Assembly: GCA_963835575.1 (NCBI GenBank)
Contig: CAWIGG010000006.1
Coordinates: 224,001-288,000 of the forward strand
DNA: 64,000 nt
Origin: an uncultured Spirochaetota bacterium
Lineage (GTDB): Bacteria > Spirochaetota > Brevinematia > Brevinematales > JAOACQ01
Reading direction: 5' to 3'
Shown: in pieces, positions 14,821-18,671 of the stretch
Numbering within the stretch: position 1 is the first letter of the stretch
Layout of the letters: every line of letters starts with the position of its first letter
Position numbers and translations under genes: made by a program
Notes under the pieces: generated by a model
What the model was told of the DNA's origin: nothing
Databases searched by the model: none
Seen by the model: the letters and a program-made list of their open reading frames with translations, nothing else

Positions 14821-16746
14821 ATGAGTGAAAAAAGTTTTATTAACGGAATATTGAAAAAGGCCGGAGATATTTTTCAAAGTATTATCCCCGGCAGAAGGAC
14901 GAAGAAAGAAAAATTCCGAAAGGTGTTCTTCGGCCTGAGGATCCGGTTTCTCGCGCTTCTTTTTATATTCATGACGGCCATCATTTTTGTGCTGACCGTA
15001 GTGATGTTTTTAGACCAGAGAAGGATCCTCCAGCAGGAAAAAAATGAAAAGGCGGGGATTTTCACGCAGATCCTCGGCGGCCCTGCCGAATTTTACCTTG
15101 ACCGCGATATAAAGACCACGGCGCAGGACCTTAAGGTCAAGTATGAGATTATTGTCAAGGAAGCGGCCAATTTCAAGAGATATAATAATGATATCGAGCA
15201 GATCCTCCTTTCGGACAGAAATAAAAAGATTGTCTTCAGCGCGTCGTCCGCCGATGTCAGGACATACAGCGAGCTTCCGTTTATAAAAGACGCGCTTTCG
15301 CAGAAAAAGGAAAGCCTGACCTATTATGACTTTAAAATAAAAAAGAAAAATAAAAAAGAGGAGCGGTTCCGCGCCTTAACTTATCCCATCTTTCTTCATA
15401 ATGGAGAGCTTGTGGACGTCCTGGCGGATTATAAAAAATATTATCTCCCTTATGAGGCATCTGACAAAAGAAGGAAAAATGAGATTTACAGGATACTCTG
15501 GACGAAATATAAAGATAAACTCGGGAAAGATTTTGAGGCCGTAAAAAACACCGGCGGTAAAAAAGCCGCTAAGGAAACAACAGGCCAGGTGGTAAAAGCC
15601 GGCGATATAGATTTTCTCTTTTTAAAAGTCTTTTCAGAAGTCATGAAAGACCGGAAAGAGAGGATCCAGAAAGCGGACGAGGTACTGCTCGCCGGGAAAT
15701 GGCTCGAGTCCTTTAAAAAGGACAAGATCGACGCCTATAAAAACGACAAGGCGACAGAGGCCGGCGATATCCAGAAAAAGATCATGGAAGCGATGAGCAT
15801 GCTTTCGCAGGATCTGGATGACGCCAGGCTCCTGGGGGCCCTGTCCATCATTTTTAATGTGAACAGAATGGGCGAGGATATTGACAAGAATGTCACGACG
15901 GCCATGATCATCGCCGGTATTATTCTGGCGTTCAGCATTGTTGTTTCATTTTATGTTGTTAATTTCATGGTCAGGAACTTAAAGAAGCTTGAAAAATGGG
16001 CGCTGGAGGTCAGCGCGGGAAATATTGATAATAAAGTTGTCATAGAGCAGAGGGATGAGATCGGCAGGCTATCGGATATTTTTAATAACATGCTGGATGA
16101 GATAAAGATGAAATTCCACCTGGAGAAATATGTCTCCCAGTCCACGCGCTCCATGATAGAACAGCAGAAAGGCCGCGAAGAATTCCCGGTCCTCGGTAAA
16201 ACGGACAAGAAAAATCTCGCCTTCATATTTTCCGATGTGAGGGGATTCACTTCCTTCTCTGAAAAGAACCAGCCTGAAACGGTGATAGAGGTCCTGAACC
16301 TTTATTTTGAAATACAGGCAAGGATCATCAATAATAAAAAAGGCGATATCGACGATTATGTCGGCGACCAGATCATGGCGCATTTCAGCGGCGATAAAAA
16401 GGCCGACCTGGTGCTTTCGACGGCCGTTGAAATTATGAAGGAAGTTCAAAAATTCAATGAAGACCGCCAGAAGAAGAACCTTCCGTATTTCGAGATCGGC
16501 ATCGGGGTGCATGGAGGCGATGTTGTTGTCGGGAATATCGGCTCCGGGTTCAGGATGGACTTCAGCTGTATCGGCGACGCGGTGAACCTGGCCTCGCGGC
16601 TTTGTTCCGCCGCCGCGCCTGGCGAGATCCTTGTTTCAAAGGCCCTGTTTTCCCAGGCTCGCCAGTTTTACAGGACGCAGAAAGTGGAACCGATCGAGGT
16701 CAAAGGCAAAGAGAAAAAGATTGATATCGTCAGAGTATTGTTTTAA
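14821..16746 (+). CDS. Membrane-bound HAMP-domain class III nucleotide cyclase
   Basis: Two TM segments, HAMP (RDEIGRLSDIFNNM), FSDVRGFT, VGDQIM, GIGVHGG, IGDAVNLASRL. Confidence 0.92.
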   Translation: MSEKSFINGILKKAGDIFQSIIPGRRTKKEKFRKVFFGLRIRFLALLFIFMTAIIFVLTVVMFLDQRRILQQEKNEKAGIFTQILGGPAEFYLDRDIKTTAQDLKVKYEIIVKEAANFKRYNNDIEQILLSDRNKKIVFSASSADVRTYSELPFIKDALSQKKESLTYYDFKIKKKNKKEERFRALTYPIFLHNGELVDVLADYKKYYLPYEASDKRRKNEIYRILWTKYKDKLGKDFEAVKNTGGKKAAKETTGQVVKAGDIDFLFLKVFSEVMKDRKERIQKADEVLLAGKWLESFKKDKIDAYKNDKATEAGDIQKKIMEAMSMLSQDLDDARLLGALSIIFNVNRMGEDIDKNVTTAMIIAGIILAFSIVVSFYVVNFMVRNLKKLEKWALEVSAGNIDNKVVIEQRDEIGRLSDIFNNMLDEIKMKFHLEKYVSQSTRSMIEQQKGREEFPVLGKTDKKNLAFIFSDVRGFTSFSEKNQPETVIEVLNLYFEIQARIINNKKGDIDDYVGDQIMAHFSGDKKADLVLSTAVEIMKEVQKFNEDRQKKNLPYFEIGIGVHGGDVVVGNIGSGFRMDFSCIGDAVNLASRLCSAAAPGEILVSKALFSQARQFYRTQKVEPIEVKGKEKKIDIVRVLF

Positions 16747-16977
16747 TTTAAAGAGGACTTTTCTCTCAACAACAAGACACAAAGAACACGAAGAACCACC
16801 AACGGGGTAATCCGCGAATGCACACGAATGGACGCGAATGAGGGGAAATTAACAGGAAGATTGTTTTAGTTAAGTCAAGAAAAAAACAATCAAAATATTT
16901 AAAAAACCTCAGTAGTTCGATATAATAAAGGCGGAAGAAAATGGAGGTGTTGCTCGCGGAATATTTCCGCAGGGTTT

Positions 16978-18252
16978 CTAACCCACTTTTGCCACCCCGT
17001 TTTCTTCCATTTTCCTTATATTTTCAGACTCATAGTCCTTTAATATCCGAAATATCTTACGGACTAATGCTCTGGCAACCCTTTTATTCGCTTCGAGCCT
17101 GCTCATTCCATTTTTTATCAAATTCCTGTGCATGCCGGAAATATGGTGGTCCGGATTCCAGTGAACAAAGTTCTTGGCCGCGTTCATAAAGGCGTTTTTC
17201 AAACGGCGGTTATAATCGTGAGTATGTTTCATCTTCTTTCTTTCACCCCTATTTTTCTTTCCGGTTTCATCTTCCACCATACCGAATCCCGCATATAACG
17301 CCAGGCTGTCCTCTTTAACAAAACGATTGATATGAATAATCTCGGCTATCATCGTAGAGGCAGTGATCACGCCGATTCCTTTCAACCCATTGCCATTGGA
17401 TTCGTCATAGGCTAAAACCCGGACAGCTTCCCTGGATTCAGCCAGATTATCCAAAATCTTCTTCATTTCTTCCTTATGGCCTTTCAAAAGAATAATATTT
17501 TCAGCAGATTGCCGGATCATCATGGAAATGGGGCCCGCTACACCCAAGATTCTTTGGGCTATTACCTGTAAGCCGGCGATGGTCTTATCCCGGCCTCTAT
17601 AAGAGCCTCCACCCATCAGCTCTTTCATTTTCTCCGCACTTAATCTCCTCCATTGGCTTAAATCGGGACAATTACACAGCAAATTCAGTACTCCTGCGCT
17701 ATTCAAAACATTATGTCTGTTATCCGTCTCCATATTCTTGCCGCTTAAGAACAGGTAAACATCCGGGGAAGCCTCGCATAAAAGCTTCCACAGCCCGGAT
17801 ATTTCCTCTGTGATCCTGCCGCTTACACTTTCATATTTCCGGGTTATCGTCTGTAATTCGCTGTCAACAGGATAGACCCTTCTCCATTTTTCCAGAGAAC
17901 CGTTCATTTCACGCTCTAAAGCCAAAAGAGCGGCGGCATGAGCATCCTTTTCGTTGTTCTTTCCCGCCGGGAGCTGGCTTTTCCTCTTTTGTTCAACATC
18001 CCTTGCTTTAAACGAGTAATAGGTCATCGATTCCTTACGAAGCACTTTCTCTAAGGGCTTACTCTGCCCGTTGCTTCCCTCGATGGCGATAATCGGGTCA
18101 TTTTTCGACCGAGTCCATTCGATCAGATTATCAAGGCCGCTTGTGGTAACCGGAAAGGCTTTCCGTTCCGTTTTCCAGTCTTCCGCTTTGACATACATAC
18201 ACACATACTGTTGTGAATCGGGATCAATCCCGATAGCATCCCGGATTAGCAT
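16978..18252 (-). CDS. IS110-family recombinase (DEDD RuvC-like plus Tnp domain)
   Basis: GIDPD, IAIEG, KNNEKDA, KGIGVITASTMIAEI, RF...LALYAG...ETG, YNRRLKNAF, ARALVR. GGAGG RBS. Confidence 0.9.
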   Translation of the reverse strand: MLIRDAIGIDPDSQQYVCMYVKAEDWKTERKAFPVTTSGLDNLIEWTRSKNDPIIAIEGSNGQSKPLEKVLRKESMTYYSFKARDVEQKRKSQLPAGKNNEKDAHAAALLALEREMNGSLEKWRRVYPVDSELQTITRKYESVSGRITEEISGLWKLLCEASPDVYLFLSGKNMETDNRHNVLNSAGVLNLLCNCPDLSQWRRLSAEKMKELMGGGSYRGRDKTIAGLQVIAQRILGVAGPISMMIRQSAENIILLKGHKEEMKKILDNLAESREAVRVLAYDESNGNGLKGIGVITASTMIAEIIHINRFVKEDSLALYAGFGMVEDETGKKNRGERKKMKHTHDYNRRLKNAFMNAAKNFVHWNPDHHISGMHRNLIKNGMSRLEANKRVARALVRKIFRILKDYESENIRKMEENGVAKVG

Positions 18253-18277
18253 TTTTTCCTCCAGCAGATTAAAATAT

Positions 18278-18455
18278 CAGACCGTTCCATTTCGGCACCC
18301 TTGTAATGAGCGACAGGATTATTCAAGGGAATATCCTGGCAATTGTTTTAAGAGACCAAAACGGTCCTTGTGGAGTTGGCAATCTTCCTGTGTGCCTTGG
18401 TTTCAAACCAGAAGGCAGGCGGGTAGTGAGCAACAACTTCCACAAGGAGGTATTC
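18278..18455 (-). ncRNA. Putative IS110 bridge RNA (target-binding and donor-binding loops)
   Basis: Two stem/internal-loop domains whose loop segments match the flanking target (CCCGCCT; ACAGGAAG) and the donor junction (TAAAACAAT; TTACAAG). Transcript ends are approximate. Confidence 0.82.
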
Positions 18456-18671
18456 TACTGAAGAATTATTTTTTGTAAACTTTTTCTCCAAAATATAGCT
18501 TACAAGGCGGGAAGACACGAAGAACGGGGGTAAAGGGGTGGCTACGCCGGTAATACAGAGGATGTTGTTTGATAATCCTTTTTTGTTTTTATTAAAGCTG
18601 ATTTATAACCCCAATTGAACGCGGATGACGCGGATTAGGGCGGATAGTCGGCAGAGCCTGCCCTGAGCTTG

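Follow-up and report, generated by a model that had tools for sequence, protein, structure and literature searches.

Can a bridge recombinase of the IS110 family function with Asn in place of one of its catalytic acids and Thr in place of its nucleophilic Ser, and does such a protein move its own element? This question is raised by an insertion element within the window analysed here, a 64,000-nucleotide stretch of an uncultured Spirochaetota genome, for which the initial annotation had offered two explanations: a subfamily using a phosphothreonine intermediate, or a copy mobilised in trans. Our results favour, with a probability of roughly 0.8, a bridge recombinase of the IS110 family that moves its own element and has a composite active site of an alternative type.

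Domains and anatomy place the element in the IS110 family. While the coordinates first assigned to it, 16978..18252, delimit the recombinase ORF correctly, the whole element is 1649 bp long including both CT cores and spans 16858..18506, with boundaries set by comparing its six copies in the genome with 17 target repeats that are empty. This and all features described below lie on the minus strand. CT cores are located at 16858-59 and 18505-06, and the core dinucleotide is CT at both ends in all six copies, with no target duplication and no terminal inverted repeats. The 5' end of the element (18255-18505) folds as a stem with two internal loops (z -5.6), which represents a predicted bridge RNA upstream of the recombinase ORF. 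From this fold, the target-binding loop occupies 18366..18447, with a left guide (18417-18426) and a right guide (18384-18391) that match the flanks, and the donor-binding loop occupies 18281..18365, with a left guide (18341-18350) and a right guide (18300-18306) that match the donor; all four guide segments are predicted to pair with target and donor halves. The left half of the target repeat, as defined by comparison of copies and guides, lies at 18507..18514, and the right half, TCCTGT, lies at 16852..16857 and is identical in 6/6 copies. A junction promoter is predicted from a -35 box, TTGACT, in the right end (16873..16878) and a -10 box, TAAGCT, in the left end (18497..18502), which come to lie 17 bases apart only once the ends are joined in a circle. 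TTGAC recurs at the same spacing in all 14 right ends recovered, and the -10 box is a consensus match only (3/6). The earlier description of an intact ORF, ends, guides and junction promoter is therefore borne out in each of its parts. No circle junction was present among four public contig sets, where contigs can show presence but not absence. Across the wider clade of related elements (ends of L001-L018), the donor sequence and the -35 box are near-constant and the target guides vary; in L017 a single donor change has a matching change in its guide.

The recombinase ORF (16978..18252) encodes 424 residues comprising RuvC-like, coiled coil and Tnp domains. It passes the cut-offs of both Pfam families, DEDD_Tnp_IS110 (PF01548, 49.8 bits) followed by Transposase_20 (PF02371, 49.3 bits), and scores 102 against NCBIfam NF033542, under the cut-off of 140. 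The two catalytic motifs begin with KNNEKDA at residue 98 and YAGFGMVEDETG at residue 320. A profile built from the best 120 of 215 homologues found, the query protein among them, aligns with IS621 (8wt6) at an E value of 7e-13 and is gap-free across both motifs. In this register N100 falls on IS621 D102, D103 on D105 and T330 on S241, and an alignment to ISCro4 places these three residues identically. Both substitutions reported from the sequence by eye, Asn at the third acidic position and Thr at the nucleophile position, are thus confirmed, so that the canonical IS621-type DEDD and loop Ser are replaced by DEND and Thr330. What that description missed is a third change, an extra Asp12 positioned two residues past the first catalytic Asp. 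Among the best 120 of 215 homologues, Asp10 (equivalent to IS621 D11; 18223..18225), Glu58 (equivalent to E60; 18079..18081) and Asn100 (17953..17955) are each conserved in 120/120, and Asp103 (equivalent to D105; 17944..17946) in 119/120. Asp12 (18217..18219), which is Ala in IS621, is Asp in 118 and Glu in two, and Thr330 (17263..17265), followed by the invariant Gly331, is Thr in 116 and Ser in four.

The Tnp nucleophile loop of the recombinase contains no Ser, and the Pro of the loop motif is also replaced, by M325. Across 59 rows of the wider clade, hydroxyl-conserved columns are limited to S80, T137, Y166, Y320 and T330, of which T330 alone falls in the nucleophile loop. Another Ser or Asp in register with the active site was ruled out by the profile alignment together with this column survey. 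Judged from these alignments, Thr330 is the only candidate nucleophile. An AlphaFold2 model of the recombinase has a mean pLDDT of 90, with IS621 and ISCro4 as its best fold matches (Foldseek E 2e-10); N100 begins a helix in this model, and the T330 loop forms a hairpin tip with low pLDDT.

Close homologues carrying Asp and Ser would be expected of a private mutant, and the best 120 of 215 instead hold Asn in all 120 and Thr in 116. Purifying selection is indicated by a dN/dS of 0.067 relative to a sibling fragment (105 codons, T330 included). Codons have also turned over across loci, where each of the four Thr codons and each of the two Asn codons is in use; against L010 synonymous sites are saturated, with a pN of 0.25. 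A private mutant or a decaying copy is ruled out by the clade-wide Asn and Thr, the low dN/dS and six near-identical genomic copies, in agreement with the initial view that simple decay is not the cause. The clade was extended beyond the best 120 of 215 by a 50%-identity search, and a 96-row tree was built from proteins of at least 370 aa, excluding fragments and 103 of the initial 120 but keeping the trait columns. All Asn rows form one branch of 59 with support of 99 (FastTree), and a smaller IQ-TREE run agrees, with an Asn clade of 15 rows at 99. P0146, a clade fragment left out of the tree, has Asp at the third acidic site. Within the 59 rows, position 330 is Thr in 52 and Ser in seven, which requires at least five changes, and the +2 position is Asp in 54 and another residue in four. 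D10, E58, D103 and G331 are kept clade-wide. Every protein with a residue at position 330 has Ser or Thr there (221/221, with 46/267 gapped), and a hydroxyl is therefore always kept. Spirochaetota is the label of 13 of the 17 longest named loci, although binning of short contigs is unreliable. A neighbouring IS110 group (P0212, P0244, P0245, P0249, P0252, P0255 and P0260) is DEDD with Thr at the nucleophile site. A single Thr origin for the Asn clade and this Asp+Thr group returned a p-AU of 0.105.

The combination is not confined to one lineage. A second lineage was sampled by a DNA pattern allowing Asp or Asn and blind to the other two sites, which yielded 146 loci; the length requirement left 83 of these, the presence of the loop motif 73, and redundancy reduction at 90% identity 61. 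These 61 comprise seven Asn+Thr, no Asn+Ser, eight Asp+Thr and 46 Asp+Ser rows. In this short RVKT-type lineage (L062-L207) the +2 residue is His in 45/52 Asp rows versus 1/7 Asn rows, where Ser (four) and Asp (two) are found instead; the loss of the +2 His in most Asn members hints, at the sequence level, that the +2 position and the third acid interact. Five of the seven Asn+Thr rows lack the +2 Asp. The best 120 of 3524 homologues of one member, L110 (363 aa), form a second clade with Asn in 118/118, Thr in 119/120 and a +2 Asp in 114/115, the full Asp(+2)/Asn/Thr triad being present in 113/120. A joint tree requires six Asp/Asn changes, and placing both triad groups in one clade is rejected with a p-AU of 2.5e-8 (31 rows, LG+G4 quick tree). 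By these phylogenies the Asp/Asn/Thr triad arose independently in two IS110 clades. The neighbours of ISEc45 showed neither Asn nor Thr among 120. The pairing of Asn with Thr is not obligatory: Asn+Ser, Thr+Asp and Asn+Thr without the extra Asp all occur, and an independent-pairs test of Asn with Thr, underpowered at only six pairs, gave 4.4 pairs changing the same way and 0.1 the opposite way (median sign-test p 0.125). Of the earlier proposals, joint conservation of Asn and Thr among homologues holds clade-wide and their strict coupling does not, since seven of 59 Asn rows carry Ser and Thr occurs with Asp elsewhere. Likewise, the proposed subfamily is real, but it is not the only one: the state is recurrent, with D12 added in two independent clades.

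The element resembles IS621 and ISCro4 (IS622) of the IS110 group in its two Pfam domains, fold, CT core, junction promoter and repeat targeting, and in a 5' two-loop bridge RNA, here predicted. It differs from them in Asn for D102, Thr for S241, the extra +2 Asp and the missing Pro of the loop motif, and its recombinase is about 100 aa longer with 15% identity. Thr at the S241 position is shared with TG-motif transposases of the IS1111 group as presented in the accessible text of Siddiquee 2024 (PMC11187229), where SG, TG or occasionally TA is noted for IS1111 and SG for the IS110 group; the IS1111 motif section of that paper reports no Asn change. Thr alone is consequently an already known sequence variant, because TG has been noted in print for IS1111. 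Unlike the element described here, IS1111 members usually have a 3' non-coding region, long subterminal repeats and proteins of 330-350 aa. Its RNA lies upstream of the ORF, and inspection by eye revealed no long subterminal repeat (11-13 bp). Eight plasmid IS110-family proteins compared, ISEc11 included, are all DEDD/Ser. In Supplementary Table 1 of Durrant 2024 (PMC11208160), row 617, from Spirochaetota and with no ISfinder name, has the clade motifs with Asp(+2)/Asn/Thr. By-eye string searches of the table, which do not amount to a census, returned at least 15 Asn rows, 14 with Thr and 10 with the +2 Asp. Row 583 of the same table lists ISCps8, ISMtsp6, ISSpi3, ISSso6 and ISVisp2. The preprint version of the Durrant 2024 text describes DEDD and a highly conserved Ser and, in the part available, mentions nothing on Asn/Thr variants. 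Literature searches, with subscription papers mostly outside their scope, returned no text on an Asn change or DEND, on the triad or on a phosphothreonine link.

By analogy with IS621 (PMC11208158), the element would circularise, its junction promoter would make the bridge RNA, and a tetramer would recombine donor and target at the CT cores. Mg2+ would be bound by D10 and E58 and a water held by D103, as in IS621, and T330 of the opposite dimer would attack the scissile phosphate to form a 5'-phosphothreonine, a link that we infer from the equivalent step in that enzyme. Thr serves as a nucleophile on phosphodiesters in nucleotide pyrophosphatase/phosphodiesterases. In IS621, D102 hydrogen-bonds G242 and is not a metal ligand, and its mutation abolishes activity; for IS110 proteins the third acid is described as connecting RuvC with the Tnp loop. 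N100 may retain the equivalent hydrogen bond to G331, as D102 does to the Gly after the IS621 nucleophile, for which no charge would be needed. The weakest step concerns D12, which might replace the carboxylate lost at position 100 or tune the site for a beta-branched nucleophile. D12 adjoins the equivalent of IS621 T12, which in that enzyme holds a metal-bound water; against a role as carboxylate replacement, Asn+Thr proteins without D12 exist. A scan of IS622 found substitutions at five catalytic positions to be depleted as a class, according to the available text of Perry 2025. Taken further, and proposed tentatively at somewhat short of even odds, the family may on at least two independent occasions have arrived at another design of active site, Asp-x-Asp / Glu / Asn-x-x-Asp plus Thr. 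In this design a carboxylate would have been transferred to the first strand from the D102 loop, there to activate the Thr nucleophile. The recombinases concerned would work by way of a phosphothreonine-DNA link, at a rate or with a directionality of their own, and would make up large clades separate from the IS621-like group that was screened for editing.

Alternatively, the element may be self-mobile with its mechanism unchanged, the three changes being conservative substitutions, D12 incidental and the recurrence a matter of pocket fit. This has an appreciable if minority chance of being correct, and the phosphothreonine step is common to it and to the explanation that we prefer, such that their likelihoods overlap. 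Ser returns at least five times within the Asn clade, yet Asn itself is held in 120/120 and 118/118 of the two best-120 sets and the +2 Asp is nearly fixed in both. Thr accompanies Asp in 8/54 rows of the second sample and in the separate sister group, as tolerance would predict, although all seven Asn rows of that sample carry Thr and six of the seven have lost the +2 His of the Asp rows. SG/TG variation is published for IS1111 and the Asn-Thr coupling test is not significant; against this, one string search of the Durrant 2024 table found Thr in 11/11 Asn rows versus 1/19 Asp rows, by a count made by eye in which many Asn rows are kin.

Far less probable is a different chemistry, in which a D10/D12/E58/D103 metal site cleaves by hydrolysis, as in an ordinary RuvC, with Thr serving only to position the DNA. 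Such a site would make sense of the fourth conserved acid close to the first Asp, and the third acid is the very residue said to connect RuvC and Tnp loop, but the junctions are precise, with one CT core per end and no duplication or loss, as conservative recombination predicts, and the hydroxyl-Gly loop is never lost.

The composite active site that we favour would operate in an element that has moved recently. The genome holds six full copies, 0-3 nt apart in the ORF, which answers in the affirmative the suggestion to look for multiple recent copies. All six are inserted in one kind of short repeat, with the right half identical in 6/6 and the left half slightly variable, and at every one of these sites the repeat is matched by the bridge-RNA guides of the copy inserted there; a further 17 exact empty target repeats are left in the genome versus 0.005 expected from base composition. 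The predicted bridge RNA could be parsed in 14/22 loci across the clade. Eight were usable for the right guide, two near-duplicates having been dropped and the rest lacking a full right flank, and the right guide matches its own flank at 5/5 positions in 8/8. The left guide, in nine loci, matches its own flank at a mean of 5.2/7 versus 1.7 when crossed, with misses at L014 (2/7) and at L001 and L010 (4/7 each). Only 2 and 3 of 200000 guide-flank permutations did as well, values that overstate independence because the tested loci are kin. Self-mobility is thus likely, and mobilisation in trans unlikely, because six near-identical copies lie at own-guide repeats and dN/dS is 0.07.

Four other IS110 loci in the genome (C2:474801, C5:7558, C2:1856534 and C2:1620581) are all DEDD; two of them are near-identical to each other, a third is present once and the fourth has an internal stop. 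Ser-Gly is found in three and Ser-Asp in the stop-bearing one. A tblastn comparison gave no match between the recombinase and these proteins, which place far outside the Asn clade on the tree. That the protein is catalytically dead or weak and the host mobilises the element in trans with a canonical DEDD/Ser IS110 is the least probable reading of all, and the early proposal of mobilisation in trans is not supported: intact canonical ORFs are indeed present, and both IS621 and IS622 suffer from substitutions at catalytic sites (for IS622, in the portion of Perry 2025 available), but purifying selection, codon turnover at N100 and T330, clade-wide retention of the remaining catalytic residues, the remoteness of the host's other IS110 proteins, own-guide targets of all six copies and guides that track insertion sites in many hosts all argue against it.

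Bridge recombinases are in development for programmable genome rearrangement, with D102 and S241 treated as fixed, and our results suggest that IS110 genome editors may have a second way of cleaving and rejoining DNA. A natural variant that was active recently, lacks D102 and S241 and has a convergent third change represents a ready mutant cycle. It makes testable the role of D102, the activation of the nucleophile and whether a phosphothreonine link supports recombination. The ortholog screen of Perry 2025, as its accessible text describes it, drew on the IS621-like clade. A motif filter demanding DEDD and Ser would drop both triad clades, and the recombinase falls below the NCBI naming cut-off.

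In its wider distribution the element has no match in four same-genus genomes and a match in 4/300 other genomes of the phylum. A copy in one metagenome contig set shows 20 differences from it in 1635 bases and is flanked by other sequence. In five relatives, flanks were too diverged for the orthologous empty site to be found. Within the window, the flanks (16770-16857 and 18507-18660) hold short REP-like units repeated genome-wide, and the element sits in one such unit just downstream of an adenylate/guanylate cyclase gene (14821-16746). The 3' fragment of the sibling element, at G000 C2:1329629-1330118, shares 83% aa identity; its right flank is unlike the target of the six copies, and it therefore probably used another guide. 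Two of the six copies, host copies of different sequence types, contain a 1675-bp IS1182-like element (213 bits, under the NCBIfam cut-off) at C2:1643157-1644831 (L034) and C5:162931-164605, in both cases at the identical spot between bridge RNA and ribosome-binding site. This IS1182-like element has about 24 copies in the genome. Many of these show 4-bp duplications, and they often lie directly ahead of purine-rich runs resembling ribosome-binding sites.
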